From a virus: a stretch of 64,000 nt of DNA. The position numbers were made by a program, and so were the translations under genes. Shown in pieces: positions 1-59,057 of this stretch; within the stretch, counting starts at the first letter, position 1; the number at the start of each line of letters is the position of its first letter. The notes under the pieces are model-generated. The model was not told the DNA's origin. It searched no databases and saw only the letters and a program-made list of their open reading frames with translations. Where the stretch lies: positions 15,775-79,774 of the IMG/VR virus record IMGVR_UViG_3300025815_000010. One strand, given 5' to 3'.

Positions 1-801
1 CAAGCGTCTTACAAGCTGCGTACTTGCAGGCATTGTAGAGGCAGCAGCACCGTCATCAATTGTCAAGATAGCGGTCCCGTCTCCTGCTTCAATAGCGGTT
101 AGAAGGTCTAGGTTGAGGTCCGACATCTTAGCAAAGTCAGTGTCAAAAACTGCAACAGTCCAGGTTGTCTGCGCAAGAAGATCTGGGTCGAAACGAAGAA
201 TCTTCTTTTCCGCCTCAGTAAGAGCGCTCACCAACTTAGAAGCAATTTGAATTGTCTCAATAACAAGACCACCGTTTGTGGCATCGTCAGCGTCAGTGCC
301 AGACGTGACAACAGAGCCTGTTGGCGAAGAATAGGCATTTGCCATGTTGTAGAAGCCGCCGCCCTCTTCAGTAATCTCTGTCACACCACCAGTAAGCTGG
401 CTACCAACAACACCACCACCATAAATTGAATCTGGCGTAGTGCCGTCAATACCAAGACGGTCGTTGGAGTACGTAAAGTCGAGGAAGAAGATGAGACCTG
501 CCGGGAGGCTCATCGGCTGAACGCTAACGAGGTCGTTGGCCAAAAGACCACCGAACACGCGACGAACAATTGGGAATGCAACAGCAGCGAAGCCCTCAAC
601 ATCGCCAGCTGCCATGGTGGAGACCTCACGAAGAAGCTCCTTAGCCTGGTTCTCAAGTAGACGTGACATGCTAGCACGATCACGATCATCGGAGATACCC
701 TCAAGGAGACCCGTGGCCTCCCACTTGGACTGAAGTGCCGCGCCTTCCTTTGCAAGATCGCGGTCAACAATGCCCTCTGTTAACTTCTGTAGTATAGACA
801 T
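1..801 (-). CDS. gp23: Major capsid protein (T4 gp23-like), 3' end beyond window
   Basis: Not in the ORF track. Read manually from ATG at 801: MSILQKLTEG...SKWEATGLLEG...LLENQAKELL...AFPIVRRVFGGLLANDLVSVQPMSLPAGLIFFLDF, a gp23 N-terminal signature. AGGAGG SD at 811-816. Confidence 0.95.
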   Translation of the reverse strand, partial: MSILQKLTEGIVDRDLAKEGAALQSKWEATGLLEGISDDRDRASMSRLLENQAKELLREVSTMAAGDVEGFAAVAFPIVRRVFGGLLANDLVSVQPMSLPAGLIFFLDFTYSNDRLGIDGTTPDSIYGGGVVGSQLTGGVTEITEEGGGFYNMANAYSSPTGSVVTSGTDADDATNGGLVIETIQIASKLVSALTEAEKKILRFDPDLLAQTTWTVAVFDTDFAKMSDLNLDLLTAIEAGDGTAILTIDDGAAASTMPASTQLVRRL

Positions 802-821
802 GATTAAAATCCTCCTAAAAT

Positions 822-2156
822 TTATCTATCTTTAATTCCTGCCAAGAGTTTCATTCTATCTGAGAACAGATTTGAATTGGACTCTTGAATCTTTCTTCTC
901 GGCAACATAGATGAAGGTCTTGATACAGCCTCACTCAGTGATTGCGGACCACTCTTACGAGAAGTTCCCACTGCGTTTTGAAGTGTTTCATACAACACCT
1001 TCGCCTCATTTACCGAACCTGCATTAGAGAGAGCTTCGACAATCGTTTCCTTTTGTCGCTCATTCAGGGAGGACTTTCTCAACACGCGGTTCGTATAAAG
1101 TAGTTTAGCGTTAGCAAGGTTAACCTCATCCAGCCTCTCCTTCAGAGCTTCTACAGCTTCCTTCAACTTAGCGTTGACGGACTGATGCTTCTGGAGGGCT
1201 TCCTGTAGGGTCTTGCCAACCTTTAAAAGTTCATCTCTTTCTTCTTTGTACTCGTCGGACTGTGCCATAGCGGCTGCAAGCTCTTCATTGTGCTGCATGA
1301 CAGACTCTGGTGTGCCTGCCCAACCGCTCTTTGTTGGCATTAAGTCAACAACAAGACTTTCAACAATTTCTTCGATATTCTCTTCGGAAAGCTCAAGACT
1401 TTCTTCGTTCAAGTTTTTCAATGCAGCCAATTCAGTGCTACCACGATCTTCATATTGGCTCTTTTGTTCATCACTTAGGTTTTTTGGAGGGACCATAAAG
1501 ATTTGATCTTTATGAACCACACTGAGGTCGATTTCTGGTCCACCCTTTGCGGTCTGATAACCAACAAAAAGCTCAGAGGAAATACCAAGTTTTTCTGCAA
1601 TGTCCTCTAGCGTATCGCCTTCCACAGCAGTGTACGTTTGCCCCTCTTCTCCTTCAAACATATCAATAGTTTCTTCGTCTAGCTCTATTTGGCCTTCATC
1701 CATGGACGGAACTACCTCAAGATCCTCCACGCCCATCTCCTCTTCAAGAGCATCAATGTCACGAGTAATGGACTCAAGCATGGCCTGTAGCTCCCCACGA
1801 GTAACGTCAATCTCTACTTCGTCTTCTAGATCAGAATCATCGTCTAGATCAGTGAGCGATGCATAACCAACATCTCCAAGCTCCTCTTCCTCGCCTGGTG
1901 CGAATGTGGCACCAGTCTCTGCATCAACAGGGTCAGGAGCCATACCTAGTCCACCCGGAGGAGCACCAATATCAGCAGGAGGCGCACCGATATCCATCGG
2001 AAGAGCAGCGGCTGCTAGGTCTTGCTCCAGAAGCTTCTCTACAGCTTCTTCAATCTTTGGAGCATATGCCTCAAGCAAAGATGCCTCTGCATTTTTAAGA
2101 ACAGCCTCTCTAAGAGCCTTCGCATCAACAATTGCATCGTCAAGTAAAGATGACAT
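822..2156 (-). CDS. Prohead core/scaffolding protein with inserted LysM-like domain
   Basis: Very acidic, coiled-coil protein immediately upstream of the capsid gene. C-terminus ...LDEVNLANAKLLYTN...RMKLLAGI. Likely start MSSLLDDAI at 2156 with GAGGA SD at 2164-2168. LysM-like segment YTAVEGDTLEDIAEKLGIS at about 1488-1637. Confidence 0.8.
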   Translation of the reverse strand: MSSLLDDAIVDAKALREAVLKNAEASLLEAYAPKIEEAVEKLLEQDLAAAALPMDIGAPPADIGAPPGGLGMAPDPVDAETGATFAPGEEEELGDVGYASLTDLDDDSDLEDEVEIDVTRGELQAMLESITRDIDALEEEMGVEDLEVVPSMDEGQIELDEETIDMFEGEEGQTYTAVEGDTLEDIAEKLGISSELFVGYQTAKGGPEIDLSVVHKDQIFMVPPKNLSDEQKSQYEDRGSTELAALKNLNEESLELSEENIEEIVESLVVDLMPTKSGWAGTPESVMQHNEELAAAMAQSDEYKEERDELLKVGKTLQEALQKHQSVNAKLKEAVEALKERLDEVNLANAKLLYTNRVLRKSSLNERQKETIVEALSNAGSVNEAKVLYETLQNAVGTSRKSGPQSLSEAVSRPSSMLPRRKIQESNSNLFSDRMKLLAGIKDR

Positions 2157-2186
2157 TAATAAATCCTCACAATAGTTATTCATGAA

Positions 2187-2194
2187 TAAATAGT
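2187..2194 (-). promoter_or_regulatory. Putative late promoter ACTATTTA
   Basis: Intergenic, 31 nt upstream of the scaffold start. The same motif recurs upstream of other structural genes. Confidence 0.6.
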
Positions 2195-2223
2195 ATTACA
2201 ATAAAGTAAAATCCAATTTTACC

Positions 2224-2535
2224 TTATCTGTTTTGTTTTGCTTGCTTCATTTTAAGCTTTCTGAGGACTGCTTCTCTGCGCATCTTGTCTCTTCTCTTCT
2301 TTACGGATGGCTTTTCGTAATACCTACCCTTCCTGAAGTCGTCTGCGATGCCGCTTTTCTTAACCTTTCTTAGAAATCTTTTAATAGTTTTCTCGATTGG
2401 TTCATTTCCTTTCGGTTGAATCGAAACGTGAGATGGTCTCTTTCCTTCCTTTGGGGGTTGTCTATGTGTATTATTGTATCTTCTATCTCTTCTATCGTCG
2501 TAATTTCGATAATGATTATCTCTTTTATATGACAT
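2224..2535 (-). CDS. rpsU: Phage-encoded 30S ribosomal protein bS21 with N-terminal extension
   Basis: Core NEPIEKTIKRFLRKVKKSGIADDFRKGRYYEKPSVKKRR matches the bS21 pattern (E..E.ALKRFKRK....G...E.RKR..YEKPS). GAGG SD present. Confidence 0.9.
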   Translation of the reverse strand: MSYKRDNHYRNYDDRRDRRYNNTHRQPPKEGKRPSHVSIQPKGNEPIEKTIKRFLRKVKKSGIADDFRKGRYYEKPSVKKRRDKMRREAVLRKLKMKQAKQNR

Positions 2536-2543
2536 TATTTCCT

Positions 2544-3002
2544 CTAACTTGATTTATCGACACCAACAGTATCCTCCCATGAACCAGAAGGGACTCTTGC
2601 TGCCTTAATTGTCGTAATACCAGCAATGACTGAAGCTGATGTTTCTTGAGAAGAATCGCTCATTAAGTAAAGCTGCGTAACTCTGAAATCTGCGGAGAAC
2701 GAACTACTAGGCTTAATCACAATGTAATTTGCATTTGGATTATTTAAACCACCAGAGGCAAAGGCGAGCCTGATGTCTGAACTAGTATGTGAATCACCCA
2801 ACTCATCATTCCTGACAACAACAAACTTGGTCACACCCGGAAAGGTGATCTTGGTGTAAGTATCGGAAGCTGACGCTGGGACATCCAGCGAAGCTGTTGC
2901 AAATGGGCGACAACTAACCTGATAACTTCCCACATGGTTAAACCCTGGTTCATGATATCCGAAAATTGGTTGCCCCGTTTTGGGGTCTGTGTTACTAGCC
3001 AT
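2544..3002 (-). CDS. Putative virion (head decoration-like) protein
   Basis: 152 aa, beta-rich and Ser/Thr-rich, in the head module. Preceded by GGAG SD and the ACTATTTA motif. Confidence 0.5.
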   Translation of the reverse strand: MASNTDPKTGQPIFGYHEPGFNHVGSYQVSCRPFATASLDVPASASDTYTKITFPGVTKFVVVRNDELGDSHTSSDIRLAFASGGLNNPNANYIVIKPSSSFSADFRVTQLYLMSDSSQETSASVIAGITTIKAARVPSGSWEDTVGVDKSS

Positions 3003-3025
3003 TAAACATCTCCGTCTTACTTAAC

Positions 3026-3033
3026 TAAATAGT
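3026..3033 (-). promoter_or_regulatory. Putative late promoter ACTATTTA
   Basis: Intergenic, 24 nt upstream of ATG 3002. Confidence 0.6.
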
Positions 3034-3042
3034 GTTAAAATA

Positions 3043-3780
3043 TTAAATATCACTAAAACCGTTTCCTGTGCTTGATCCGCCGCCAGAGGAGGCTATTACA
3101 TCTTTTACTGCAAATCCTCCTTTACCTCGCGCACCCTTAGAGCGTCTTCTGCGTCTTTTATTTCTTTTCTCTTTAGGAGTTTCCGACTCGCTGGCTGAAC
3201 CTGCGACATAAGAAACTTTTGGCCTATCAGCTACCGTACCGTAGGCAGCAGAACGAAATCTTGGACCACTCTTCGTTGCAGCAGCTGTATCGTCGTTACT
3301 ATAATCTTGTTCTGCTATAATGACGATTCTAAATTCATCCAAGTCTGCCATCGCTTGTCTGGCAGTTGCATTAAGAGTAATCTCATTTACAGACCCGTTG
3401 CTCCATGAAGAAGCCTGCTGAATTGCCGAGAAAGCAACAAAAGGGAATTCTCCCTTTCCGAAATCTCCATTAACATATTCGGCTGTGGTGCTGCCTGTCG
3501 TAGTAGAAGAGCCCTTAAGAACAATATAATTATTTTGTTTTGCTCCTGTGCTTGGCGCTGTCAATTTTAATGTCGCCGAAGCAGGAGCTACGGTAATAGA
3601 GCTAGTATCAAACACCATAAAAATTCTATGAATATCATAGGGTCCAACTGATGTCGCTATCTTTAGGCCGAGAGTAGTTGGTTCTGACGCAGTACCGGAA
3701 CTAGACTGCCTAGCAGTATTCCAAGTAGCTGCATTGTCAACTTTAATAACGGCACTATTTGATGCGGTAATATCAGGCAT
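3043..3780 (-). CDS. Putative virion protein, DNRLRE/CBM-like beta domain with Arg-rich C-terminal tail
   Basis: Likely start MPDITAS at 3780 (TAATG overlap with upstream stop). RIFMVFDTSSI...SATLKL...RPKVSY resembles DNRLRE-type domains. Tail KRNKRRRRRSK. Confidence 0.5.
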   Translation of the reverse strand: MPDITASNSAVIKVDNAATWNTARQSSSGTASEPTTLGLKIATSVGPYDIHRIFMVFDTSSITVAPASATLKLTAPSTGAKQNNYIVLKGSSTTTGSTTAEYVNGDFGKGEFPFVAFSAIQQASSWSNGSVNEITLNATARQAMADLDEFRIVIIAEQDYSNDDTAAATKSGPRFRSAAYGTVADRPKVSYVAGSASESETPKEKRNKRRRRRSKGARGKGGFAVKDVIASSGGGSSTGNGFSDI

Positions 3781-4046
3781 TAGATAGTAGTCTCCGTAAC
3801 AGACGTCAGGATTCCCCAACCTCCATTTTCTGTTTCCTCTTCAGTTGTAAAAAAATACTTTAATAAAAAAGATCTTAAAGTGGGTACCGTCTCTGTCGTC
3901 TTAGAATTTATGTCTGCCTGAAATTGACTTAAAAACTCAGATGCCGTTAGGGATCTTGCAATCCAGTCGTCTCCCTCTTGGTGTGGGTAGTCCCAAGCCT
4001 GAACAAAGCCATTTTGCCATGTAATGACAACAGAGAAAGTCCTCAT
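3780..4046 (-). CDS. Hypothetical protein
   Basis: Likely start MRTFSVV at 4046. TAATG overlaps at both ends. Confidence 0.6.
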   Translation of the reverse strand: MRTFSVVITWQNGFVQAWDYPHQEGDDWIARSLTASEFLSQFQADINSKTTETVPTLRSFLLKYFFTTEEETENGGWGILTSVTETTI

Positions 4047-4465
4047 TAGATAAGGTTCTTCCACTTGTTGCCACCTAAGGCCATAATGCCAGAGATATCA
4101 ATTCCAGAATCTCCAGGGTCTGTACCACCCAATGGGCTAGCCATCTGTGTTGCAGAGCCCTGTGCTGGTGCTGGAGTCGTTCCCTCAAAGAGATCAACAC
4201 CACCATATGCGTCTGCTCCAATGGCTTCCATTAGGCGCTTACGGTGCTCCGCCACCCTGTCAGAAACAGACGGTGCTGGAGTTTGTGCAACCTGCTTTTT
4301 TTTTGGTCTCTGCTCTGTCTTAGCTTCCAAGACTGGAGCAGGAGTACCTAAACCTTGCCTGACCTCTGCGATTACGTTAGATAAGATGCCTTCCTCAAGA
4401 ATACTCTCTCGTATGCATTCTTTGATTAAGGGTTTTAGTAATGCTTTTAGTTCAGACTTTTTCAT
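4046..4465 (-). CDS. Hypothetical prohead-associated protein
   Basis: Directly follows the protease gene. N-terminus MKKSELKALLKPLIKECIRE. Confidence 0.6.
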   Translation of the reverse strand: MKKSELKALLKPLIKECIRESILEEGILSNVIAEVRQGLGTPAPVLEAKTEQRPKKKQVAQTPAPSVSDRVAEHRKRLMEAIGADAYGGVDLFEGTTPAPAQGSATQMASPLGGTDPGDSGIDISGIMALGGNKWKNLI

Positions 4466-4466
4466 T

Positions 4467-5096
4467 TTATTTCCTTAAAATTTCGTTCATTAAGTTGTGT
4501 AAATTTTGGTTTTTGTTCTCACCCAAGCTAATACCAATTGACGGAGTTCTCTGTAGAGAGATGCCAGACATTGGCTTGATAAAAGCTCCCGGTGCTGATG
4601 GATCTGAAACAACATCAAAACAAATAAGATTAAAATCATCTTCTACAACAACGTGTTTACCACGCTGTTTTACAGACCCCAAGCCTCTAGAAGAAATACC
4701 GATGCCACAAGCAGATTCTGCGAGGGCTCTCAAGGTTCTTCCAGATGGTGTATTCAATACTTCAATTTTTCCCATAACGCTGTTGCCTTCCCACCAGACC
4801 TCTGTGACCAAGTGAGAACAATTCTTCAACTCAATCACAGAGGAGTCTGGATGGTCTAACTCGCCTAAGGCACGTCTAGTGTCTATAAGCTTCTGGTAGT
4901 TTTTCATTTCTCTTGCGAGAATCTGCTTCGGGTAAACTCGTCCATTTCCGTTAAGAGCATCAGCTTCCTGAATCTTACCGGTCATATAAAACGATACACC
5001 TTCTGACATTCTTTTTTTCTCGCTCTCCGTGAGGTAGTCAGGACAAACTCCACCATCACAAAGTGCAAAATATTCTGTTAACAATTGCTTAGACAT
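4467..5096 (-). CDS. gp21: Prohead core protein protease (T4 gp21-like)
   Basis: NGNGRVYP, ALGELDHP (catalytic His), GISSRGLGS (catalytic Ser), FDVVSDPS. Confidence 0.95.
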   Translation of the reverse strand: MSKQLLTEYFALCDGGVCPDYLTESEKKRMSEGVSFYMTGKIQEADALNGNGRVYPKQILAREMKNYQKLIDTRRALGELDHPDSSVIELKNCSHLVTEVWWEGNSVMGKIEVLNTPSGRTLRALAESACGIGISSRGLGSVKQRGKHVVVEDDFNLICFDVVSDPSAPGAFIKPMSGISLQRTPSIGISLGENKNQNLHNLMNEILRK

Positions 5097-5118
5097 AATG
5101 AAAAAACCCCTTAAGAAT

Positions 5119-5188
5119 GCGGGCGCTACCCGCGCGAGCTACGAACCGGAACAGCAGCGTGCGACAGGTCGTAGTAACCAACTACGAC
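5119..5188 (-). promoter_or_regulatory. Structured RNA leader (multiple hairpins) upstream of the protease
   Basis: Perfect 8-bp stem GTCGTAGT-TGGTT-ACTACGAC (5168-5188) and GC-rich stem GCGGG-TAGCG-CCCGC (5119-5133) followed by ATTCTT. Confidence 0.55.
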
Positions 5189-5213
5189 TTGATATGTTGC
5201 ACAGTAGTGGCAT
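5139..5213 (-). CDS. 24-codon upstream ORF MPLLCNISSRSWLLRPVARCCSGS, in frame with the protease gene
   Basis: ATG at 5213 preceded by AAGGGGGTGA (SD-like). TAG at 5141-5139. 5213-5096 = 117 nt, so in frame with the protease. Confidence 0.45.
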   Translation of the reverse strand: MPLLCNISSRSWLLRPVARCCSGS

Positions 5214-5426
5214 ATCTCACCCCCTTATCTTGGATTATCATGCTCAACATGTAAGAAGTCCCTGAACCTACACAACCACAAATTAAAAAATTAGCGAGTG
5301 TGTAGTCGAAAGTAAATAGTTCGGTCCATCGGTTAATCGCAAATAAAAACCACCCTGCATGAAAACTCATATATCTTTCCATATGGTGTAGTGAACTATC
5401 TTATGAACATGTCTTTCAGAAATCAT
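5182..5426 (-). pseudogene. Degenerate, 5'-truncated paralog of the upstream membrane protein
   Basis: WTELFTFDYT..NF.ICG....GTSYMLSM is shared with ORF 5429-5746. Upstream KIVHYTI in another frame aligns with KLFHCTL, consistent with a frameshift. Confidence 0.6.
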
Positions 5427-5428
5427 CT

Positions 5429-5746
5429 TTATTGACTTTTATGTTGGCTGTTTATTTTTATTCCTTCATCGTCCAGTACCATAGATAACATATATGATGT
5501 GCCAGCACTGACCCAGCCGCAAATAAAAAAGTTTACGACGGTATAGTCAAAAGTAAATAGCTCTGTCCATGGGCTTATCAAAAACATAAACTTACCAGCC
5601 CAATAACCAAAACAAAGCGTGCAATGAAACAACTTTCCGAAACCCCAAAGCCATTCTTTAGATGGCCTTATCTTGTTAAAAATACTAGCGTACACTACAA
5701 GATAAGTTAGTCCATGACATGCAAGGACAAACCAAAGTAGATTCAT
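5429..5746 (-). CDS. Small membrane protein, DUF1360-like (CxxC between TM helices)
   Basis: Hydrophobic helices; IFNKIR...LFHCTLCFGYWAG pattern. Confidence 0.6.
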   Translation of the reverse strand: MNLLWFVLACHGLTYLVVYASIFNKIRPSKEWLWGFGKLFHCTLCFGYWAGKFMFLISPWTELFTFDYTVVNFFICGWVSAGTSYMLSMVLDDEGIKINSQHKSQ

Positions 5747-5748
5747 TA

Positions 5749-6324
5749 TTACTCCTGATTCTCTAAAATGTAACTCATCCAGTATGGGCTTCTGTAGTAG
5801 CCTGGAACTATAGAGCCCTTCTGCTTGTCTTGTGGAACTTCGCCTAGCTCCGTAGATTCTTCTGAATCTGGCTCAAGTATTCTGTTATTTATGAGGTCGT
5901 CAAAGTCTTCCCCATACTCAAAATAAGGTCTTTCACTCTCAATCCACTTCGAAATTGTAAGAAGAATTATTTTAATTGGAGCTTCCATATTTGATTCTGG
6001 TATGGCGGCCTCAAAAGAGTCTAGCGTTGAGCCTCCCTGTACTGATTCTGGTGAGATGACGCCACGAGAAGATAGGTATTTAAACAGTCTATCGGCAGCA
6101 CCGTATGCAACGTCTCCGTTTACGCCATCCTTTTTAAAAGTAACAATCTTCTTTTGCTCTGGGCGTAAGATAATATCTATATCTGCATGATCATAGACAA
6201 TAATATTTCCATCTAATGTTTTCTTAGCCTTAAGAGTAAAGGAAGCAAGAACCTCATTCTCATCTACAACTTTAACAATCACTTTCTTTTCTGACGGTGT
6301 AAACCGAATTCTTACGTCGGGCAT
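5749..6324 (-). CDS. Hypothetical protein (head module)
   Basis: Likely start MPDVRI at 6324 with GGAGG SD. Confidence 0.7.
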   Translation of the reverse strand: MPDVRIRFTPSEKKVIVKVVDENEVLASFTLKAKKTLDGNIIVYDHADIDIILRPEQKKIVTFKKDGVNGDVAYGAADRLFKYLSSRGVISPESVQGGSTLDSFEAAIPESNMEAPIKIILLTISKWIESERPYFEYGEDFDDLINNRILEPDSEESTELGEVPQDKQKGSIVPGYYRSPYWMSYILENQE

Positions 6325-6325
6325 C

Positions 6326-7132
6326 TTAAACCTCCACAACCAAAGCCTGTATCTTCAAGATTGTCTTGATCATTACATCACTGATAGGCTGTGATCTAAA
6401 GTTTTCCAATATAGTCAAAATCTCTCTATTTTTATTACCAAGAGATTCGTCTAGGATAACTTCTCTCTTGGCTTGCAAGTTTTTGACCTCGGTCTTTAAG
6501 CGACTAATCTCATCATTTATAAAGAGCTTAAATTCTGTGGAGGTCTCTGGAGAAAGTGTTACATATCTTGAAAGTAAATCTTTCTGACTTTCGTTTAGAG
6601 AAGAGCCGTATTTCTCGTTAAACTTCTGCACAAAGATGTTGTATGTGATATTGTCAATTGGTTTCATCTTGGGGGAACTTTGGCGTGGTGAAGTCATAAG
6701 ATCAATCACCTTTTCTTCCAGTATGACCCTCTGTGCAATTGACACCTTTGGGGAAAACATCTGTGAGATTGTAGCTAGGGTCTTGTAGTTAGAAATAAAG
6801 TTATTGAAAATAGACTTAGACAGATCAGTGTTGACCTTTTTGATGACTTGTGACTGCTCATCAAAAATCTCTTGCTCTCCAAGCGTATGATAAACTCTTT
6901 TAACTTCAGATAAGATTCTTTCTGCTGTCTCTCTCTTCGCATCGGATACTTCACATAAAGTTTTGTATAAGTTTAGTTCACGATGGAGAACAGTCGTAGT
7001 ATTGAAGTGCTCTTTAAGGATAGAGGCAATTGCGTTCTTAGTAGTCGTATCGGACTGTATGGCAGCCTTTGTCATTTCCTTTACAAGACACTCATACAAA
7101 AACGCAGTGTTTCTCTTCTTATTATGCTTCAT
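6326..7132 (-). CDS. Hypothetical helical protein downstream of portal
   Basis: 268-aa ORF overlapping the portal stop; MKHNKKRNTAFLYE start. Confidence 0.7.
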   Translation of the reverse strand: MKHNKKRNTAFLYECLVKEMTKAAIQSDTTTKNAIASILKEHFNTTTVLHRELNLYKTLCEVSDAKRETAERILSEVKRVYHTLGEQEIFDEQSQVIKKVNTDLSKSIFNNFISNYKTLATISQMFSPKVSIAQRVILEEKVIDLMTSPRQSSPKMKPIDNITYNIFVQKFNEKYGSSLNESQKDLLSRYVTLSPETSTEFKLFINDEISRLKTEVKNLQAKREVILDESLGNKNREILTILENFRSQPISDVMIKTILKIQALVVEV

Positions 7133-9113
7133 CGGTCTTTGTCTCCATTGTTTTAAGATTTTCTAACAATCTCTCTGTTTCGTAACTTATAGAGAAAATT
7201 CTTTCTTCTTGAATGTTTTGTTCTCTCTCGTAATTAGTAGCTTCCGACGTTATACCTTTCTGGAGCGTGCTAATACTATCATGTCCGTAATATCCTGGGC
7301 CTATTGAACGCATGGTACCACCAGAAGCTGCCTCAGGCACTGCGGTCCTCGCTAGAGACTTAAGCCTTGGGCCTCTAGATTTCCTTCCATCCTGCTTTTT
7401 CTTACTTGGGTTAGTCCACCTAAAATCTTCGTCTCTTTTGCCTGGGGTTGCCAAAAGTGGGGTAGCTTCTGCCGCTTCTCCACCTCCGGTATCTGCAGCT
7501 GGCTCTGCGGCTGGCTCTGGCAAGCCACCAGCATCTTCTCCGCCTGGTTCTGCCAACGGCATATCACTTGCTCCAGGCAAGCCCTCGCCTCCCTCAAAGC
7601 CTCCTGCCATACCGGCATCCATGCCACCCGCAAGCGCACCAGCGGCTTGCTGACCAGCAGCTTCACCAACTGCGTTAAGCTCAGCCTCATACTTACGGTC
7701 GTGGTAAATCTCTCTCTTGTTACGAATAAATTCTTCCTCAGACATTCCAAAGAGATTTTCTGCGACCCAACGCTTAGAGAAGAAGCCATCAGTAGCGTTT
7801 GTTGCGACAGAGAACTTCTGATTCCAATGCTCAAGCTCTTGGATTTCTGCAATCTTAGATGGATTGTTAAGGGCAAGAGTAAAGCTGATTAGGTCTTCAC
7901 CACGGAACCCTAGTGTATGTAGGTGAACAATACCAATCTTTTCTAGCTCGGATAGGAGTGGACGCTGAAGTCTTTGCACTGTTCTCGCAAAACGGATATC
8001 TTTCTGTGCGAGAGTAGTTTTGTCTTCAGAGCCCCCCTCACCTTGGGTGAGGTAAGCAGCAGGGATCTTTAGAGCAGAGAACAACTTGTCTCTCAGATAT
8101 TTGACATCATCAATATCATGGTTTCTCTCTTGGCCCCCAACGCTTTCAATAGAAGCAAACTTTGTTCCACCACGAACAGGAATGTAATAGTCCTCTTCGA
8201 TGCTCATTGGATTGTAGCGAAGATCAACACGGCCAGTGTTCTGGTTGACTACTTGATTTCTCTTCATTGCAGTGATGACTCTCTGCATGTACTGCTCGAC
8301 ATCTTGAGGTGGAATGTTGCCGACATCAACATAGAAAGCCTTTCTGGCTGGTGCCCTAACAATACGGTATGCCATCATGGCATCTTCCATTAGTGTAAGC
8401 TGACGCCAAATACGGCGGGCTGGCTCTAGGACTGATGTTCCGTATGGGTGGTATTTATCATTCCCTAGGATACGGAAGTGAGCCATCTGCCAGTTTTCAA
8501 ATGTCATGCCTGCAGCGTTCCACTGGAACTGGATATAGTTTGGATTTGTCTTGTCTTCGCCCTCTAGCCTCTCAATCTCGTTTGGGGGGAGGCCGATTGC
8601 ATGACGAACACCATATGTTTCGTCAACATCCAAGTAAAGGAAAAAGTCTCCATACTTGCACATTGTACGAGCCCAACCAAAAAGATTAAACTTAACATTT
8701 AGAACGTCATTATAGAGACTGTCGAGAATGGCCCTAATCTCTTCGTTGGGACACTTGATCTGTAGCATTTCTGCTAGGGGAGAAGAGGTTGTCATTTCAT
8801 CTGCATAAATATCAAGAGCCGATGCAATCTCTGGCATGTATTCCATTTGGTCAGAGTCTACATATCTTTCCGTTCTATTCTGGTTCGCCATATAGTTTGA
8901 GTTCATAGACTCAAATGGATTATAATGTGACCTTTTGAATTCCTGCCCAGAGGCAGACTTAAACATATGTCCGTACTTATCAAGCTGTTGCTTGCGTATT
9001 CTGCGGCCTGTTTGTGTTCTACGGCTGACAATAGGGCCAGAGAATAACTTTGTTAGCCTCTTGTATATATCAGATGCAGGATTTCTAGGATTTCCACTAT
9101 TTTCGTCAGCCAT
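7122..9113 (-). CDS. gp20: Portal protein (T4 gp20-like) with long C-terminal extension
   Basis: PEIASALDIYADE, YGTSVLEPARRIWRQLTLMEDAMMAYRIVRAPARKAFYVDVGNIP, EEDYYIPVR, LFSALKIP, DIRFARTVQRLQ. Confidence 0.95.
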   Translation of the reverse strand: MADENSGNPRNPASDIYKRLTKLFSGPIVSRRTQTGRRIRKQQLDKYGHMFKSASGQEFKRSHYNPFESMNSNYMANQNRTERYVDSDQMEYMPEIASALDIYADEMTTSSPLAEMLQIKCPNEEIRAILDSLYNDVLNVKFNLFGWARTMCKYGDFFLYLDVDETYGVRHAIGLPPNEIERLEGEDKTNPNYIQFQWNAAGMTFENWQMAHFRILGNDKYHPYGTSVLEPARRIWRQLTLMEDAMMAYRIVRAPARKAFYVDVGNIPPQDVEQYMQRVITAMKRNQVVNQNTGRVDLRYNPMSIEEDYYIPVRGGTKFASIESVGGQERNHDIDDVKYLRDKLFSALKIPAAYLTQGEGGSEDKTTLAQKDIRFARTVQRLQRPLLSELEKIGIVHLHTLGFRGEDLISFTLALNNPSKIAEIQELEHWNQKFSVATNATDGFFSKRWVAENLFGMSEEEFIRNKREIYHDRKYEAELNAVGEAAGQQAAGALAGGMDAGMAGGFEGGEGLPGASDMPLAEPGGEDAGGLPEPAAEPAADTGGGEAAEATPLLATPGKRDEDFRWTNPSKKKQDGRKSRGPRLKSLARTAVPEAASGGTMRSIGPGYYGHDSISTLQKGITSEATNYEREQNIQEERIFSISYETERLLENLKTMETKTDEA

Positions 9114-9116
9114 TTA

Positions 9117-10697
9117 TTACCCCTTCATTAGCCAGATGAATTGTTCTTGTTGCTCTAGTGCTGTTTTCTTTTTATTATCAAAGCTATTATGCCCTAACAT
9201 GCCAGGTATGGTTGTGTCAAGTTTTTTATTTGTAGCAATCAAAGAACTAAAGAAAGCTTCTCTATATTCCATTTCCCTCTTATTTGCAGTCAATGCAGTA
9301 TCTCTTACCCAACAAGAAATTGCCAAAGACATGATAAGGTCATCGTTGTAGCCTCTCATGGCCTGTGGCTTTCCATTATTCCAAATAAAAGTCTCCATTT
9401 CGTTACATAAGCGATTCGAATGTATAATAACTAGTTTATTTCTGATAAACTCTTCCATTTTAGCAACAACTAAGGGCCTCGTCTTAGTTGTTGTGGAGAA
9501 ACCCGGAACTGAACTAGCATTAGTGTACGCCACTTCTTGCTCTATGTATTCGTGGGTTCCTTTCAACGAATAATATATATTAGAGTATCCAAGCAATTCA
9601 AGCTTCTCTAGAACAGAAATACCAATACCAATATTCTCAACAACTAAGAGGGCATTACCATACTCTTTCCCAACTTGGTCTAGGATACTAGCGTACATGT
9701 CAAGGCTTGGTTTGCCCTGATATTCTGCTACCTGCTCCATCGTAGAGACTTTGAATACGTGAAAAGCAGAACTATCTTTACCGTCACCTCTAGCAACATC
9801 TGCCACAAGTAAATAATTCTCTCCAGTTACATATCTTTCCCAGATCCAATAATTTCTATCAAAGCCTGTTCTGTAACTTGGCTCCTTGACAGTTTGTTTT
9901 ATGAAAGCAATATCGTCAGGGTGTACCACAGTTTCGCCGGATGTATTGAAGTTACACTCAAGCTCCTGTGCAATCTGGCGTCTTGACATATTTCTTGTTT
10001 CTTTCTCAAACCATTTAAGATCTCGCTCGGGATGAACATCCCATGGGAGGTTGGAGGGAAAGAAATCGTTCTCTCCTGCTTCTGCATCGACATACGTTTT
10101 GTGAAACCAGTTACCAATACCGTTTGGCGTGCTTAGGGCGATACAACGCCCACCAGTTGACAGTGTAGGGTACAGGCCCGTCCAAAGTTCCTCTAAGCCT
10201 TCGATGTGGGCAGCCTCGTCTAGAACCAAAAGTGAAAGGGCCTCCGAACGACCAGCGTCTCCAGAAGTGGATGCTGCTTTAATCTGCGACCCGTTGCTCA
10301 ATTCAAAAGAAGACCGGTTGTCAATATTAATATCAGCAATACGAATCCACTCTGGTAGATTCTTCATAATGCTTTTTACTTTCTTTACCAAGTTTGTTGC
10401 AGTCGCAAACTTAGTTGCCATAACTAATACATTTTTGTCTCGATGAAAGAGCAGAAGCCAGACAACATAGGCTGCAACAATTGTTGACAAACCAAGCTGT
10501 CTAGCTTTCAAGATAATGTTGAAACGATGATCGTTGAAGTTAACCAACATATCATCTTGATATGGGAAAGTAGTAAAGGGTATTAGACCCTCAAGGGGGT
10601 GAGAAATCCTACAGTAGTTATTGATAAAGTAAGCTGGGTCTTTGCCAGACTTTACAACCTCTTTTAAGATTTCTTTTTTTGTTAGCTGGTAAGCCAT
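9117..10697 (-). CDS. gp17: Terminase large subunit (T4 gp17-like)
   Basis: Walker A KARQLGLST, Walker B LLVLDEAAH, motif III STPNG, nuclease residues ADVARG...DDLIMS. Confidence 0.95.
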   Translation of the reverse strand: MAYQLTKKEILKEVVKSGKDPAYFINNYCRISHPLEGLIPFTTFPYQDDMLVNFNDHRFNIILKARQLGLSTIVAAYVVWLLLFHRDKNVLVMATKFATATNLVKKVKSIMKNLPEWIRIADINIDNRSSFELSNGSQIKAASTSGDAGRSEALSLLVLDEAAHIEGLEELWTGLYPTLSTGGRCIALSTPNGIGNWFHKTYVDAEAGENDFFPSNLPWDVHPERDLKWFEKETRNMSRRQIAQELECNFNTSGETVVHPDDIAFIKQTVKEPSYRTGFDRNYWIWERYVTGENYLLVADVARGDGKDSSAFHVFKVSTMEQVAEYQGKPSLDMYASILDQVGKEYGNALLVVENIGIGISVLEKLELLGYSNIYYSLKGTHEYIEQEVAYTNASSVPGFSTTTKTRPLVVAKMEEFIRNKLVIIHSNRLCNEMETFIWNNGKPQAMRGYNDDLIMSLAISCWVRDTALTANKREMEYREAFFSSLIATNKKLDTTIPGMLGHNSFDNKKKTALEQQEQFIWLMKG

Positions 10698-10703
10698 GCT
10701 GGC

Positions 10704-11252
10704 CTACTCTTTCTTTCTAGAATCGTTCTCTGGTCTCTTGCCCGCGAAGCCACCTTGGTCCAAGAAAGTCCTAAATTTAACATCCATACGATCCTCGGAT
10801 GGGGCCTTGACTTCCTCTACTTCATTTAGTGTACCAATATTGTACATTCTGTGCGCTTGACACCATGTGCGAACTCTTGAAGTGTTCTGAACAATGACGT
10901 TTACATCACCGTCTGCGGTAAGCGTGAGAGAATCGCCTGTGATTGCTTTGTACTCTTTCTTTAGGAACGTAGCAATATCATTGATCATAGACTCGACATT
11001 AGACTCAAAAGGAGTAGAATAAATCTCTTTAAGCATCACTTCAGAATGGTATGAGATTTTTAACTTCGGACCATGGAAAGAAACGCCAAAGCCATCCATA
11101 ACACGTTTGTCTATCAGAGGATTCCCCTCTTCACGCTTGAGTCCAACTTTTCTTGCCTTGCCGTCAGACGCATACTCTTCCATGTGAGCCCCGTCGTAAG
11201 CGTTGGCTGCTGCTTGCGAGATCCCTCTGATGATTTCTAAAGTGGTTGCCAT
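10704..11252 (-). CDS. Hypothetical protein upstream of terminase
   Basis: Likely start MATTLEII at 11252 (TAATG overlap, GGAG SD). Confidence 0.7.
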   Translation of the reverse strand: MATTLEIIRGISQAAANAYDGAHMEEYASDGKARKVGLKREEGNPLIDKRVMDGFGVSFHGPKLKISYHSEVMLKEIYSTPFESNVESMINDIATFLKKEYKAITGDSLTLTADGDVNVIVQNTSRVRTWCQAHRMYNIGTLNEVEEVKAPSEDRMDVKFRTFLDQGGFAGKRPENDSRKKE

Positions 11253-11638
11253 TATTTGTCTCCCTTTTCTGGACGCCAGCCTGTTAGCCATCTTTCTTCT
11301 CTGCCTTCAACCCACTGAACGTAACAATTATAACAACAATCATACTTGCTCATGTAGGCATCATCTTTTATACTGAAAGAAAAAGTTTCACAAACGGGGC
11401 AGTCTCTCCTTACGAATTCTTTATTAATTAGTTTTTTAGAAACTAAAATGCCATTGACTTCGTATTTCTCTTCGCTTTCTTGGAAAGATCGTTCTTTTTC
11501 TGCCAGGATTTTCAATTGTTCTTTATAACATTCTTCCTTTTCATCGTTCCAATACTTTCTTGGGTTTTCAATTGCCTCTGTACCGTATTTCTGGGCAATA
11601 GCTTTTTCTATCCTTGCAATTCTATTTGGGTCCTTCAC
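11252..11638 (-). CDS. Hypothetical zinc-binding protein
   Basis: CPVC...CCYNC motif. Confidence 0.65.
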   Translation of the reverse strand: MKDPNRIARIEKAIAQKYGTEAIENPRKYWNDEKEECYKEQLKILAEKERSFQESEEKYEVNGILVSKKLINKEFVRRDCPVCETFSFSIKDDAYMSKYDCCYNCYVQWVEGREERWLTGWRPEKGDK

Positions 11639-11838
11639 TATGCCTCCATTTTTTCTTTGATAAGGGATACTAAATTTGATGCATCATGTTCAAAAAGGAA
11701 AGGGAAAAACGCATGTACTAAACAAATACAAGATGCGTATAGTAGCAACAGACAAAAGCCTATAGCTCTTAGCATGTGCCCCAAATAAGACATCCCAATA
11801 GAGTTTGGATGTTCACGGAATAGCTCTATCAATCGCAT
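11638..11838 (-). CDS. Small membrane protein, DUF6356-like
   Basis: HPNSIGMSYLGHM...LVHAFFPFLFEHDAS pattern. Confidence 0.6.
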   Translation of the reverse strand: MRLIELFREHPNSIGMSYLGHMLRAIGFCLLLLYASCICLVHAFFPFLFEHDASNLVSLIKEKMEA

Positions 11839-12256
11839 ATGCAGTCCCAATCCCTAATGCTATACCAGCCACCACACTTCCAGCTATAACTAGCGGAAGG
11901 TTGACCTTCCTGTCCTTTTTAATTAGTTCTCGTAATGACTCTATTTCTTCGTCTCTAAGAGAAATCTTTTCTTCATATCTAAAAGTTCTCTCTTCTAGCT
12001 TAATGTTTAGAGTTTCTATGTCTAGAATGTACTTTTCTCTTTGTAGGCTTAATTCAAAATTCAATCTATTTTCAAACTCTCTTTCTTGGAATTCTCTCCA
12101 AGTTAGAAGTTTAGCAGTAGCAATATCGTCAAAGCATGTAGCTTGAAATGGTACACGACCACCGCTTGGCACCAATGTGAAGCTGCCGTCTTGTGCCATC
12201 GCCGGGTTACACAAGACTAAACTTATACTTAATATTTGTGCAATCTTACTTAACAT
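11813..12256 (-). CDS. Exported coiled-coil protein with C-terminal TM helix (possible spanin component)
   Basis: Signal-like MLSKIAQILSISLVLCNPAMA, central coiled coil, C-terminal LPLVIAGSVVAGIALGIGTAYAI. Confidence 0.5.
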   Translation of the reverse strand: MLSKIAQILSISLVLCNPAMAQDGSFTLVPSGGRVPFQATCFDDIATAKLLTWREFQEREFENRLNFELSLQREKYILDIETLNIKLEERTFRYEEKISLRDEEIESLRELIKKDRKVNLPLVIAGSVVAGIALGIGTAYAIDRAIP

Positions 12257-52604: not shown

Positions 52605-52888
52605 TACTTATCGCCCTGAATCATACTGAATATATCTTCTTTATCTTCATCCGACAGACCAACGTCTTTAGATTGGTTTTTCTGAATTAGACCGGCTATC
52701 TTTACAAGCTGTTCGTTCGACCTTTGTAGCGTCTCGACATACTTTGATGCAGTTAAGCCCACCTCTCTGTGTCTGGACTCGTCCTTGCTCAAATAGCGCA
52801 CGACATCATCGAGCAAGTCTCTTGTTATCTTTCTGTCGTCTTCGATATTTGATATAGCTTTTTGTAAGTAGTGGTCTAGCTTTTTCAA
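52604..52888 (-). CDS. Hypothetical helical protein
   Basis: TTG start with GAGGGG SD; KYVETLQRSNEQLVKIA. Confidence 0.65.
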   Translation of the reverse strand: MKKLDHYLQKAISNIEDDRKITRDLLDDVVRYLSKDESRHREVGLTASKYVETLQRSNEQLVKIAGLIQKNQSKDVGLSDEDKEDIFSMIQGDK

Positions 52889-53577
52889 ATTTGCCCCTCA
52901 TCCCACCTATGCCTAAAGACTCTATATTTTGTTCTTATCTTGTTAAGATTATTGACAACTTGTTTAGTATTTAAGCCTGTGAGTTCTCTGATGTATAAAT
53001 AAATAGCCTTTTTATTGAAAATTAGATTAGGATTATCTTTGTCTTCTAATAAAATTTTAATTGCTTGAAGAACTTTTCTTTCGCTTTCCTTCAGTCTAGA
53101 GTCTTCCCAGTCCTTTATTTCTTCCCACAAAAGGTTCCAAAATTCTTCTGTTTGCCTTTGCTCATCATACTTGATAGTAGTGGAAGCAAACTGCAATTGG
53201 TTTTCTGCAGTGAGGTTATCGATATCTACCTGTCTTTTTGACTCTTTATTGGTTTTCTTTACTTTGTGAATAAACCAGTTTTTGGTAATAACGCTGAAAT
53301 AAGAAAAAGCCTTAGAGCCTTTTGCCGGATCATACTTACCTAATATCGTAGTAAGATATATCTTGCATTCGTCTCTAAGGTCATCTATGTTGGGAAGAGA
53401 AGTAAACTTGTATGTGAATACAATCTTATCAACCATTTCGCTAAAAGCTGGCTGTATGAATGTACGATACAATAGAGATCTTTCTCTGGGATCTGTTGAA
53501 TTATTATACGATATTATTGCGTTTTCATGTTCTTTTGTAAAATATAAGTTTTTTGTACGTTTACGCCTCTTCCTCAT
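52885..53577 (-). CDS. Phage RNA polymerase sigma factor (gp55-like late sigma)
   Basis: YFTKEHENAIISYN...KYDPAKGSKAFSYFSVITKNWFI resembles sigma region 2; C-terminal HTH-like segment. Likely start at 53577. Confidence 0.75.
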   Translation of the reverse strand: MRKRRKRTKNLYFTKEHENAIISYNNSTDPRERSLLYRTFIQPAFSEMVDKIVFTYKFTSLPNIDDLRDECKIYLTTILGKYDPAKGSKAFSYFSVITKNWFIHKVKKTNKESKRQVDIDNLTAENQLQFASTTIKYDEQRQTEEFWNLLWEEIKDWEDSRLKESERKVLQAIKILLEDKDNPNLIFNKKAIYLYIRELTGLNTKQVVNNLNKIRTKYRVFRHRWDEGQI

Positions 53578-53875
53578 CGTCAGACACCTCCTCGGTTTGT
53601 TCATCAAATGGTTCTGTTAGGAGAAAGATTTCTTCATACCCTCCCAGCACTTCCCTAAGTGCGTTAGAGTGCTCAAGAAGATTTGTAAGCGTTTGGTCGC
53701 CATAGAATCTCTCTAGTTCATATACAGCTTGTAGGTGTTTTGCGAAGTCATCTACAAGCTCGTACAATGAGCCAAGATTCTCAGACAGATACAGAAGATT
53801 ACTTAAGGTATTTCTAGTGTACCAGAATAAAAATACGTTTATTAGCAAAGATGCAATTAATGCAATTTCAATCAT
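53561..53875 (-). CDS. Hypothetical membrane-anchored protein
   Basis: N-terminal TM segment IALIASLLINVFLFWY. Confidence 0.6.
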   Translation of the reverse strand: MIEIALIASLLINVFLFWYTRNTLSNLLYLSENLGSLYELVDDFAKHLQAVYELERFYGDQTLTNLLEHSNALREVLGGYEEIFLLTEPFDEQTEEVSDDEEEA

Positions 53876-54110: not shown

Positions 54111-54297
54111 CGCCAAAGTCCTGATTTAATTTGACTGTTGGTGGGTTCATCACCATCAAGCCAGTCTCACTAAGTCTAAACTTGAATGCTTTCAGCACAG
54201 GCACAATGTCTGACTGTTCCAGAAGAGACTTCTGTAGGGCCATCATTAGGGCTCCCAATGCTTGGTCGCTAAGGTGCATATTGTTATCTTCACTCAT
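54097..54297 (-). CDS. Hypothetical protein
   Basis: 66 aa, TAATG-coupled, AGGAG SD. Confidence 0.6.
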   Translation of the reverse strand: MSEDNNMHLSDQALGALMMALQKSLLEQSDIVPVLKAFKFRLSETGLMVMNPPTVKLNQDFGDAEV

Positions 54298-55010
54298 TAT
54301 TCTTCTCCTTCGTCTTCAAAATTATCAATAAACTCTTGCAATTTTTCAGCGTCACTTACTCTCTCGTGGTGCAAAGAGTAATAAAGGGCGTCTACATTAT
54401 CGCTCTTGTGTCGGATTAGCCTATCTCTATGTGTTTCATCGATTTCACTCTTGTTCACAACAAAATGCATGTGTTCTGTAACAATTGGTACAGAAAAGTG
54501 TCTCATAATCATGTCAGAGACCTCGTTTAACCATGTATCATTGTAGTCACTTGAAAAATAAGGCGGCACAAAGTACCCAACTGTATCTGTCCAATTCTTA
54601 TGAATAAAACCATGCGTACCAAACCCAGGGAAGGGGTGATAGAGATCATTTCCATGAACAAACATAATGTGGTCTTCATATTGATTAAATTTATTTATAA
54701 CTTCTGTGTCCCACCCTGACGTTCTCATGATAATGTCGTCACCACAGTGAAAATAAACCTCTCCTTTGGCAACCTTCCAACACTCATTCCACATTTGACT
54801 CAGTACGATCCTTTCGCCAGAAATGTATTTAACATTATTATATATTTTTGTCAACTCATCAGACATAAATAATGATTCTAAATCATCTTCATCAATGTAA
54901 AAAACTATTTCTATATTTTCCGGCTCATTACAAGTGTCATATATAGATTTCACGAGTCTATACATATTCTCTGGTCTTTTACGGGTTGGGCATAAGACTG
55001 ATATGTTCAT
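54297..55010 (-). CDS. GT-A fold (GT2-like) glycosyltransferase
   Basis: ISVLCPTRKRP, YIDEDD, GDD, YNDTWL, EHMH. Confidence 0.8.
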   Translation of the reverse strand: MNISVLCPTRKRPENMYRLVKSIYDTCNEPENIEIVFYIDEDDLESLFMSDELTKIYNNVKYISGERIVLSQMWNECWKVAKGEVYFHCGDDIIMRTSGWDTEVINKFNQYEDHIMFVHGNDLYHPFPGFGTHGFIHKNWTDTVGYFVPPYFSSDYNDTWLNEVSDMIMRHFSVPIVTEHMHFVVNKSEIDETHRDRLIRHKSDNVDALYYSLHHERVSDAEKLQEFIDNFEDEGEE

Positions 55011-55645
55011 CTCACACTCTCCAGTACGAAAAATCCATTACCTTTTGGATAATGAGACCAATTATCCTTTATGCCTGGGACCCTATGGGAAAACTCTTTA
55101 ATGATAAAACCATTTTTCATGAACATATCTGACCACCAATTTTCATCTTCTCTTACAATATGAGTAATATCTTTTTCATACTCTGGGATGATGTACCTAG
55201 TTCCATCTCCAAGAGGAATTATGACAAATAAAGTTTTACACACTTTTGATAATTCAGATACCACAGAGTTCAAAACACTAGGTTCAATATGCTCAAACAC
55301 ATCTTTTGATATTACAAAATTAAAATATTTTTTTATGCTAGATATTGTGTGTTCATGTTCGATAAGATAAAGCTTATGTCTGATCGATGAATCAGAAGAC
55401 TCTATAGCGTAATTACTAAGGTCTGCGCCACAACAATCATACCCCAAGTGGTTAAACGCTTTAACAAGATATCCCTTAGCGCACCCATAGTCTAAAATAG
55501 TATCACCTTTTTGTATATCTAGTTTTTTTATTATTGTCTGACACATGGGGATAGTTAGTTCTGGCAGCCATCTGTAGTTTGAATATCCACTTATTCCTAA
55601 CTGAACGCCTCTCTCATAATAGTCTTGGTTATACAAATTCTTCAT
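55007..55645 (-). CDS. Class I SAM-dependent methyltransferase
   Basis: ILDYGCAKG, GADLS, DVFEHI. Confidence 0.88.
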   Translation of the reverse strand: MKNLYNQDYYERGVQLGISGYSNYRWLPELTIPMCQTIIKKLDIQKGDTILDYGCAKGYLVKAFNHLGYDCCGADLSNYAIESSDSSIRHKLYLIEHEHTISSIKKYFNFVISKDVFEHIEPSVLNSVVSELSKVCKTLFVIIPLGDGTRYIIPEYEKDITHIVREDENWWSDMFMKNGFIIKEFSHRVPGIKDNWSHYPKGNGFFVLESVR

Positions 55646-59049: not shown

Positions 59050-59057
59050 AAACTCTC

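Follow-up and report, generated by a model that had tools for sequence, protein, structure and literature searches.

A conserved micro-gene and a hairpin at fixed distance from it in the head-gene block of uncultured aquatic phages

Upstream of the T4 gp21-type prohead protease gene, in a 64,000-nucleotide stretch of viral DNA (positions 15,775 to 79,774 of the IMG/VR record IMGVR_UViG_3300025815_000010; the whole stretch is hereafter called the window), lies an open reading frame (ORF) of 24 codons, followed five nucleotides later by a small G+C hairpin. Comparison with relatives indicates that this ORF is an independently translated, conserved protein-coding gene and not a throw-away leader. 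The micro-gene is shown to be part of the head-morphogenesis block in a large clade of uncultured aquatic phages having T4-type portal, protease and capsid genes. Micro-gene and hairpin, both of them under selection, make up a previously undescribed module of about 100 nt. In the interpretation to which we incline, with reservations, the encoded peptide would be a trans-acting microprotein of the head module and the hairpin would be gated by translation of the micro-gene. The window belongs to a 79.8-kb virus record rated about 44% complete, and all genes of its head-block part are on the minus strand.

Evidence for a conserved micro-gene

An earlier reading of the window, made from its letters only (the sequence-only reading), had singled out a Shine-Dalgarno (SD)-like element AAGGGGGTGA (5226-5217), an ATG (5213-5211), the ORF MPLLCNISSRSWLLRPVARCCSGS and its TAG (5141-5139), upstream of a gene taken for a prohead protease. 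All these elements are found at these positions and the identity of the protease is borne out by its match to Peptidase_S77 (Table 1). A search of IMG/VR with the protease returned 130 relatives, of which 80, sharing 52-97% identity, were kept. The micro-ORF lies within 400 nucleotides (nt) of the protease gene in 71 of these 80 protease-anchored loci, and its core is conserved somewhere in the locus in 78. One of the two loci without it has no upstream DNA, and the other, L056, carries a different small ORF there. The consensus of the relatives reads ...W-T-x-K-W-M-L-Q-P-V-R-R-C-C-K-G-S, and 41 distinct peptides show no exception at W, P, V, the first C or G. The subclade of the window has the variant S-W-L-L-R-P-V-A-R-C-C-S-G-S, and the core of the whole family may be written [R/K]-x-[W/Y/F]-x-L-[Q/R]-P-V-[R/A]-x-C-[C/K]-x-G-[S/C]. 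The micro-protein is basic and has 16-50 residues across the family, 24 in the window.

Codon statistics were drawn from 113 distinct 13-codon cores, taken from 159 loci. The ratio of non-synonymous to synonymous polymorphism (pN/pS) is 0.28 in the frame of the ORF versus 1.43 and 1.17 in the other frames, and the column entropy amounts to 0.62 bits at the first codon position, 0.60 at the second and 1.50 at the third. Ser13 is encoded by TCN in 69 of the 113 cores and by AGY in 25, while both CGN and AGR codons are used for Arg7. Furthermore, of 128 distinct relatives, 127 have an in-frame start with an SD-like tetramer 4-15 nt ahead of it. It might be argued that the ORF is spurious and that the whole stretch is a structured non-coding RNA, since two hairpins show some covariation (see below) and most of the 16-24-codon versions of the micro-gene went uncalled by gene callers. 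However, a non-coding structured RNA cannot give the observed pattern of frame-specific pN/pS, three-base periodicity of substitutions and switching of Ser13 between TCN and AGY codons. The SD sites also argue against it, as do the result of an Rfam search of positions 4900-5500, which yielded no family and a single chance microRNA match (E = 9.8), and the fold of the 151-nt leader, which is no better than that of shuffled sequences (z = -0.41). This explanation can scarcely be entertained.

The N-terminal part of the peptide is variable in length, with 3 to 13 or more residues before the W. Codon 14, which follows the core, is a stop codon in 71 of the 159 loci (stop-type) and one of ten different sense codons in the 88 others (sense-type). 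In the stop-type ORFs, the invariant W, P, V, C and G are all located within the last 13 residues.

A hairpin at a fixed distance from the core

The sequence-only reading had also noticed GCGGG-TAGCG-CCCGC, starting 5 nt after the TAG and followed by ATTCTT. This 5-bp hairpin (hairpin 2 in Table 1) is present as described, its sequence is unique in the window, and it is conserved in relatives. Its folding energy is -10.5 kcal/mol, with a z of only -1.09 because the stretch is G+C-rich. When 38 distinct sequences are aligned without gaps, 93.7% of the cells are paired, versus 33-51% if the partner is slid by 1-3 columns. Compensatory changes are found: one-sided intermediates are absent at pair 50-60, where 25 of the 38 sequences have G-C, 12 have A-U and one has C-G, and pair 48-62 becomes A-U in two sequences. 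These are counts of sequences, not of independent events.

A generic stem search retrieved the hairpin in 107 of 129 distinct segments, versus 10 of 124 control coding segments. Its placement is rigid. Among 128 distinct sequences examined, 100 have a hairpin of the canonical form RCRGG-N5-CCYGY, and in all 100 it starts at +47 from the Trp codon. There are 57 stop-type sequences; in the 46 of them carrying the canonical hairpin, the spacer between stop codon and hairpin is always exactly 5 nt. By contrast, the next start codon has no fixed place, its distance from the stop codon varying between -34 and +58 nt. The base following the stop codon is C in 48 of the 57. The hairpin is also found at +47 in 59 of 72 sense-type segments, where the ORF runs through it and the hairpin encodes R-V-A-P-A or variants. 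These residues follow the RNA pairing, a G-to-A change in the 5′ arm (Arg to Gln) being matched by a synonymous change in a Pro codon of the 3′ arm.

A terminator scan did not call hairpin 2 and, T-rich tails being scarce (see below), a terminator activity is doubtful. Contigs assembled from RNA libraries deserve mention here. The X18 and X19 contigs, from one study, break at 5119-5148 with a 30-nt overlap, and the X20 contig, which comes from another study, stops at 5120 (3′ base of hairpin 2), a point past which the DNA contig continues. As contigs cannot show RNA ends, these breaks are at most a weak hint of an RNA boundary.

A second stem, of 8 bp, had been proposed at 5188-5168, inside the micro-gene. 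This hairpin 1 is real (-11.6 kcal/mol, z = -3.84). Across 11 relatives, seven of the eight pairs are maintained, the eighth forming in only 3 of the 11, and compensatory changes have occurred at two of the seven (pair 9-27, UA to AU once; pair 14-22, GC to AU three times). Hairpin 1 is specific to the subclade of the window. As for a third stem, GCTGC/GTAGC, said to enclose the stop codon, it does appear in the minimum-energy fold of the 151-nt region, but this fold is the one that resembles shuffles and the stem is not recovered by RNAalifold from 38 relatives. Indeed, the RNAalifold prediction is limited to four weak pairs (-0.53 kcal/mol) between the Cys-codon columns and the hairpin's 5′ arm, a single compensatory change being seen, in a single sequence. 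The description of the region as unusually GC-rich and structured likewise holds in part. The G+C content is 54% in 5100-5199 versus 30-46% in the adjoining 100-nt segments, but it reaches 62-64% in 7450-7650, and the leader as a whole folds like shuffles. The G+C of the leader region is raised, not exceptional. The G+C peak of the region lies in the portal gene, where residues ~475-600 (7300-7700, minus strand) are of low complexity, rich in Gly, Ala, Pro and Glu, at 60-64% G+C.

The micro-gene and the downstream protease gene

In the window, the TAG of the micro-gene is in frame with the ATG of the protease gene (5096), with 14 open codons between them (45 nt). Three explanations had been put forward on this basis. 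According to the first, the hairpin would stimulate readthrough of the amber codon, giving a protease isoform extended by 39 residues. The C after the stop codon and the stem 5 nt downstream, the latter found in all 46 stop-type sequences that carry a canonical hairpin, are reminiscent of viral examples of structure-stimulated readthrough, and five database proteins with Gln at position 14 do read into the next gene. However, the downstream frame is not conserved: frames 0, 1 and 2 account for 15, 46 and 29 of 90 distinct junctions. Of the 39 junctions whose codon 14 is a stop, six keep the frame, and just three of these are open. As for close relatives, L001 is in frame, L002 (93% protease identity) is interrupted by an in-frame TAA, and L005-L009 and L011 (76-85%) have the protease ATG in another frame. 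Moreover, the next gene is not the protease in some loci (8/80), and the amino acids specified by the hairpin change in step with the RNA pairing. On the alignments, readthrough is refuted as a conserved mechanism, and we consider it very improbable altogether. The in-frame relation in the window is a coincidence, as had been allowed when its chance probability was put at one in three.

The second explanation was a leader-peptide attenuator sensing charged tRNA-Cys at tandem Cys codons. In the window, two adjacent Cys codons are indeed located four codons before the stop, with a G+C hairpin just downstream, and the four RNAalifold pairs (about -0.5 kcal/mol) link precisely the Cys-codon columns and the 5′ arm of the hairpin. 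Yet this 4-bp alternative pairing is without informative covariation and U-tracts are mostly missing. The tandem Cys is not conserved either: the second Cys is replaced in the C-K-N-G-C and C-R-N-G-C lineages and the bacterial homologues described below have one Cys. In addition, W, P, V and G are equally conserved, so that selection bears on the whole peptide. An attenuator of this type must be judged most unlikely.

The third explanation, a cis-acting RNA limiting the dose of the protease, has fared better in part. The hairpin is conserved, covarying and rigidly spaced, but it travels with the micro-gene and not with the protease gene. In 8 of the 80 first loci, a scaffold-like gene (MK-x-T...L..IIKEEL..., homologous to the 139-aa gene of the window) lies between the micro-gene and the protease gene. 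The same arrangement occurs in many loci of a second set, including L203 and L222, whose micro-genes were missed by a regular-expression search. Finally, in L046, the hairpin is kept after the micro-gene although the next gene is not the protease. These loci indicate that the module belongs to the micro-gene.

Homologues in bacteria

When 185,579 species genomes were scanned with a pattern, 25 matches were obtained. Eight of them are phage-type loci, having the protease and/or membrane gene nearby; their presence in metagenome-assembled genomes (MAGs) of unrelated taxa points to phage DNA that was binned wrongly. Some 14 resemble chance matches, the chance expectation of about 17 being our own estimate and not a computed value. 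Three are convincing, two in Saccharibacteria MAGs and one in a Bacteriovoracaceae MAG, with E = 1.5e-10 to 6.3e-9 per genome for the phage profile. Sampling of bacterial genomes revealed the family in 6 of 401 from the same phylum and, at the level of the class, in 4 of 301; its occurrence in bacteria thus appears rare and patchy. Bacterial homologues retain a single Cys, and one of them, MTRKRYLLRPVAHCCSGS, is closely similar to the variant of the window.

The bacterial copies (L266/L282, L272/L283, L280/L284, L288, L289, L293 and L294) are stand-alone mini-genes with an SD and a terminator, and with promoter-like hexamers as judged by eye. In L266, L272 and L280, the hairpin starts at +45. 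In the Saccharibacteria copies L266/L282 and L272/L283, the ORF extends through a terminator stem of 13-14 bp and the stop codon is located past the U-tract, so that terminated transcripts would have no stop codon. In this respect they resemble ArfA and BrfA, in which the ORF runs into a terminator and a non-stop mRNA is produced. The micro-peptide is, however, far shorter and without similarity to these proteins, and most members of the family, including that of the window, stop before the hairpin. A same-strand gene follows in nearly all phage loci and, within about 60-250 nt, in five of the seven bacterial loci. L282 and L289 have no same-strand target, and in L288 the next gene has a separate promoter-like site (by eye).

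Possible modes of action

According to the interpretation that we tend to favor, the peptide would be a trans-acting microprotein of prohead assembly that probably works alongside the adjacent membrane protein. By position, it may be likened to T4 prohead core genes 67 and 68, small genes which are found between portal gene 20 and protease gene 21. The T4 products, of about 80 and 141 aa, are much longer than the micro-protein.

As for the hairpin, it may be considered that a ribosome with the stop codon in its A site would cover about 10-12 nt further, that is, the 5-nt spacer and the whole 5′ arm. The hairpin would then fold only on RNA molecules whose micro-gene is untranslated at that moment, and the fixed 5-nt spacing fits such a behavior. 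Support for this view comes from ribosome geometry and from an experiment in E. coli. There, when a stop codon was moved from 28 to 5 bp before the tR2 terminator, termination dropped from about 90% to less than 10%, and this effect was lost upon uncoupling of translation (PMC4824070). The distance at which termination was thus abolished, 5 nt, is also that between the stop codon of the micro-gene and its G+C hairpin. The hairpin would descend from the intrinsic terminator of the same mini-gene in bacteria. In the phages, it would now serve as a translation-gated RNA boundary (a weak terminator, a pause or a 3′ stabilizer), separating the genes on the portal side from those of the protease, scaffold and capsid. 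Ribosome-repressed terminators near stop codons are also known from coupling of the pyrBI/pyrE type. In some of the relatives and of the bacterial homologues, the ORF passes through a hairpin with a U-tract. Nevertheless, most phage copies, including that of the window, are devoid of a U-tract, and those systems have no need for the strong amino-acid selection seen on the micro-peptide.

Several observations weigh against this interpretation. Gene order is the only ground for a role of the peptide in prohead assembly, and the neighbors of the bacterial copies are unrelated housekeeping genes (dnaG, NnrS, MgtE, glycosyltransferase, DoxX), which are silent on head assembly. A trans-acting protein alone would leave unexplained both the fixed distance between core and hairpin and the retention of the hairpin at +47 in sense-type sequences. 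Concerning the hairpin, a T-rich tail is present in only 12 of 107 phage cases, that of the window having none. The independent covariation events that can be named are at least two (L037 versus L042, with the same peptide; the A-U outer pair of L013/L015). In L288 and L289, the hairpin or terminator is not at the fixed distance but further away. Finally, contigs of RNA-seq libraries contain the stretch, but contigs cannot show translation, strand or ends.

Another possibility would be a nascent-peptide switch acting in cis. In such a model, the conserved residues would act in the exit tunnel and slow down or arrest the ribosome once codon 13 occupies the P site and the A site holds codon 14. 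The edge of the ribosome, at +47, would hold the hairpin open, or the stalled ribosome would cover the start of the next gene. The module would thereby set the flow of transcription or translation into the protease, scaffold and capsid genes and, in bacteria, would be placed before varied genes. The limitation of the conservation to about 16 residues near the C-terminus, after an N-terminus of variable length, is in line with this model. So are the rigid distance between core and hairpin (100/100 at +47, with +45 in three bacterial loci), the weak stop context (C after the stop in 48/57) and the presence, in five of seven bacterial loci, of a same-strand gene of unrelated function about 60-250 nt further on.

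A parallel may be drawn with TnaC, the leader of the tna operon, and with other arrest peptides such as SecM and MifM. The ORF of the window has 24 codons with the invariant Trp 12 residues before the last residue, a geometry that matches W12...P24 of TnaC. The conservation concerns a C-terminal part of tunnel length, and the stop codon abuts a transcription or translation signal. There is, however, no sequence similarity with these peptides. Codon 14 being either a stop (71/159) or one of ten sense codons (88/159), no single stall site or A-site codon is conserved. Moreover, self-contained bacterial copies exist that have no same-strand target (L282, L289) or whose next gene has its own promoter-like site (L288), and C-terminal extensions and fusions are tolerated. 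A switch in cis is regarded as unlikely, albeit worth keeping in view. It is doubtful, to a slightly greater degree, that W-x-L-Q/R-P-V-x-x-C-x-x-G is a new nascent-chain arrest or sensor motif which, with a hairpin lying just one ribosome edge further on, would constitute a portable translation-gated switch. Such a switch would meter the flow from portal-side genes to those of the protease, scaffold and capsid in T4-like aquatic phages, and would be placed before unrelated genes such as dnaG, mgtE and nnrS in some bacteria (Patescibacteria, Bacteriovoracaceae).

Distribution of the family in sequence collections

A search of IMG/VR with the peptide alignment gave at least 600 stretches, and the micro-gene was confirmed in at least 506. 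In a collection of 5.8 billion proteins, 89 were retrieved at E <= 1, all unnamed or "hypothetical", with a single marginal match to a Pfam domain among them. A profile search of 1.84 billion representatives gave 62 matches at E <= 0.001. The usual lower size limit of gene callers is about 30 codons, and most versions of the micro-gene, with their 16-24 codons, are too short for it. Known families offered no counterpart: three members of the micro-protein family matched no PHROGs family at E <= 10, a Pfam scan of 36 members gave noise only (best E = 0.026), and so did NCBIfam (best E = 0.036). A tblastn search of 50,697 phage records with three versions of the peptide found nothing real, sensitivity being low at such a query length. 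The peptide strings of the motif were not found in the literature searched. The ESM Atlas, queried with P0013, returned unnamed clusters (top score 0.83) and was uninformative.

Three of the representative proteins (P0099, P0114, P0115) are in-frame fusions of the C-terminus of the membrane protein to the micro-protein. In five others (P0101, P0102, P0103, P0106, P0109), position 14 is a Gln and the reading frame carries on into the next head gene. Fusions of the micro-protein with the next gene thus arise and are tolerated, yet remain exceptional. Besides, four proteins of high-G+C appearance (P0038, P0083, P0125, P0127) contain WMLQPVRHC, twice in tandem in P0038 and before a DUF397 domain in P0083; they may be further members of the family or may reflect chance.

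Genomic context

The features of the head-gene block are collected in Table 1. In the clade, the gene order is portal, two conserved genes, CxxC membrane protein and micro-gene, then the protease or the scaffold-like gene.

Table 1. Features of the head-gene block around the micro-gene (positions in the window)
Feature	Position	Strand	Remarks
T4-type portal gene	7122-9113	minus	PF07230, 1.5e-73
Two conserved genes without assigned function	6326-7132 and 5749-6339	minus	between the portal and CxxC membrane-protein genes
105-aa predicted three-helix membrane protein, invariant C42-x-x-C45	5429-5746	minus	39-sequence alignment
66-aa ORF, 3′ remnant of a membrane-protein gene	5182-5382	minus	duplicates the C-terminal half of the 105-aa protein
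SD-like AAGGGGGTGA of the micro-gene	5217-5226	minus	GGGGG (5224-5220), 6 nt before the ATG
Micro-gene, 24 codons + TAG, MPLLCNISSRSWLLRPVARCCSGS	5139-5213	minus	core W12-x-L14-R-P16-V17-A-R-C20-C-S-G23-S
Hairpin 1, GTCGTAGT-TGGTT-ACTACGAC	5168-5188	minus	inside the micro-gene, codons S-R-S-W-L-L-R
Spacer CTCGC, 5 nt, stop codon to hairpin 2	5134-5138	minus	
Hairpin 2, GCGGG-TAGCG-CCCGC, then ATTCTT (no proper U-tract)	5119-5133	minus	
SD AAGGGG of the protease gene	5107-5112	minus	10 nt before the protease ATG
T4 gp21-type prohead protease, 209 aa	4467-5096	minus	PF03420 (Peptidase_S77), 2.2e-33; phrog_207, 1.2e-50
139-aa scaffold-like protein (MKKSELKALLKPLIKE...)	4046-4465	minus	downstream of the protease gene
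Ribosomal protein S21 homologue, 103 aa	2224-2535	minus	PF01165, 4.5e-15; within the head-gene block

The gene of the membrane protein is nearly always the immediate upstream neighbor of the micro-gene; it ends at most 150 nt before it in at least 98 of 159 loci, as located with a crude motif. Its CxxC is invariant, and its match to DUF1360 is below threshold (E = 0.025). AlphaFold2 modeled the membrane part of the natural fusion P0099 with a pLDDT of about 90, while the micro part received 49-55 and no secondary structure. A complex prediction with the 105-aa membrane protein, Zn and the micro-protein scored 0.02, versus a mark of 0.32; a partner of less than 30 residues is outside the calibration of this score.

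In the window, the start and SD of the micro-gene as well as hairpin 1 overlap the 3′ end of the 66-aa ORF, and the TAG of this ORF (5184-5182) falls inside the hairpin 1 stem. The 66-aa ORF shares 73% DNA identity with the other copy. In L001 (97% protease identity), there is one membrane gene of 107 aa, the C-terminal half of which corresponds to the 66-aa ORF, and no extra copy. Contigs of two RNA-seq libraries join 5363 to 5605, without the 241-nt segment 5364-5604; its removal merges the 105-aa and 66-aa ORFs into one membrane-protein gene of 107 aa. This joint and the single copy of L001 indicate that the window carries a partial, diverged duplication. The 66-aa ORF is a remnant that still supplies the SD and start of the micro-gene.

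The first 24 residues of the protease (5025-5096, minus strand) read LLTE-YFAL-C-DGGV-C-PDYLTE, with C13-x4-C18 between two L-x-E cleavage motifs of T4 type, and this segment may be a removable pro-peptide. The C-x4-C is present in 89 micro-gene loci. Micro-gene and C-x4-C are both missing from 92 outgroup loci, whose protease N-termini have no Cys pair at all. A Cys4 (zinc) site common to the micro-protein and the protease N-terminus was considered and dropped as a general mechanism, because a subclade of 24 loci keeps the CC of the micro-protein with no Cys in the protease N-terminus.

The gene of the major capsid protein starts in the window, downstream of the scaffold-like gene and past the S21 homologue. 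An annotated RpsU also adjoins the protease module in a distant relative, Microcystis phage Mel-JY01. Elsewhere in the window are found genes for the large terminase, an SbcCD-like nuclease, a primase, a baseplate wedge protein and a gp55-like late sigma factor. The latter gene (52885-53607) adjoins a run of sugar-modification genes (54297-62405, minus strand) that encode glycosyltransferases, a methyltransferase, a radical-SAM protein and a UDP-glucose dehydrogenase. The T4 late-promoter consensus TATAAATA has eight matches in the window, none of them within positions 1-12,000, and a tRNA scan found no tRNA genes. The DNA of 4400-5800 had no match in the 50,697 phage records. The nearest cultured relatives of the protease belong to Flavobacterium phage immuto (47.5% identity) and Microcystis phage Mel-JY01 (45.5%). 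Neither of these phages has a micro-ORF upstream of the protease gene, by annotation or by motif.

Concluding remarks

The present case carries a lesson for annotation, in that an "in-frame uORF" can be a coincidence, and a few dozen relatives settle such claims quickly. Genes of 16-25 codons are skipped by standard callers, and this micro-gene has remained unannotated in hundreds of genomes of abundant aquatic phages, where it sits midway in the best-studied kind of head-assembly module. An action in cis, if true, would make the module a compact and portable switch and, for phage late operons, the first arrest-type leader to be described. If the peptide is a true microprotein, a new and strictly conserved player would stand beside the prohead protease and the CxxC membrane protein, which could bear on the start or the control of head assembly at the membrane.

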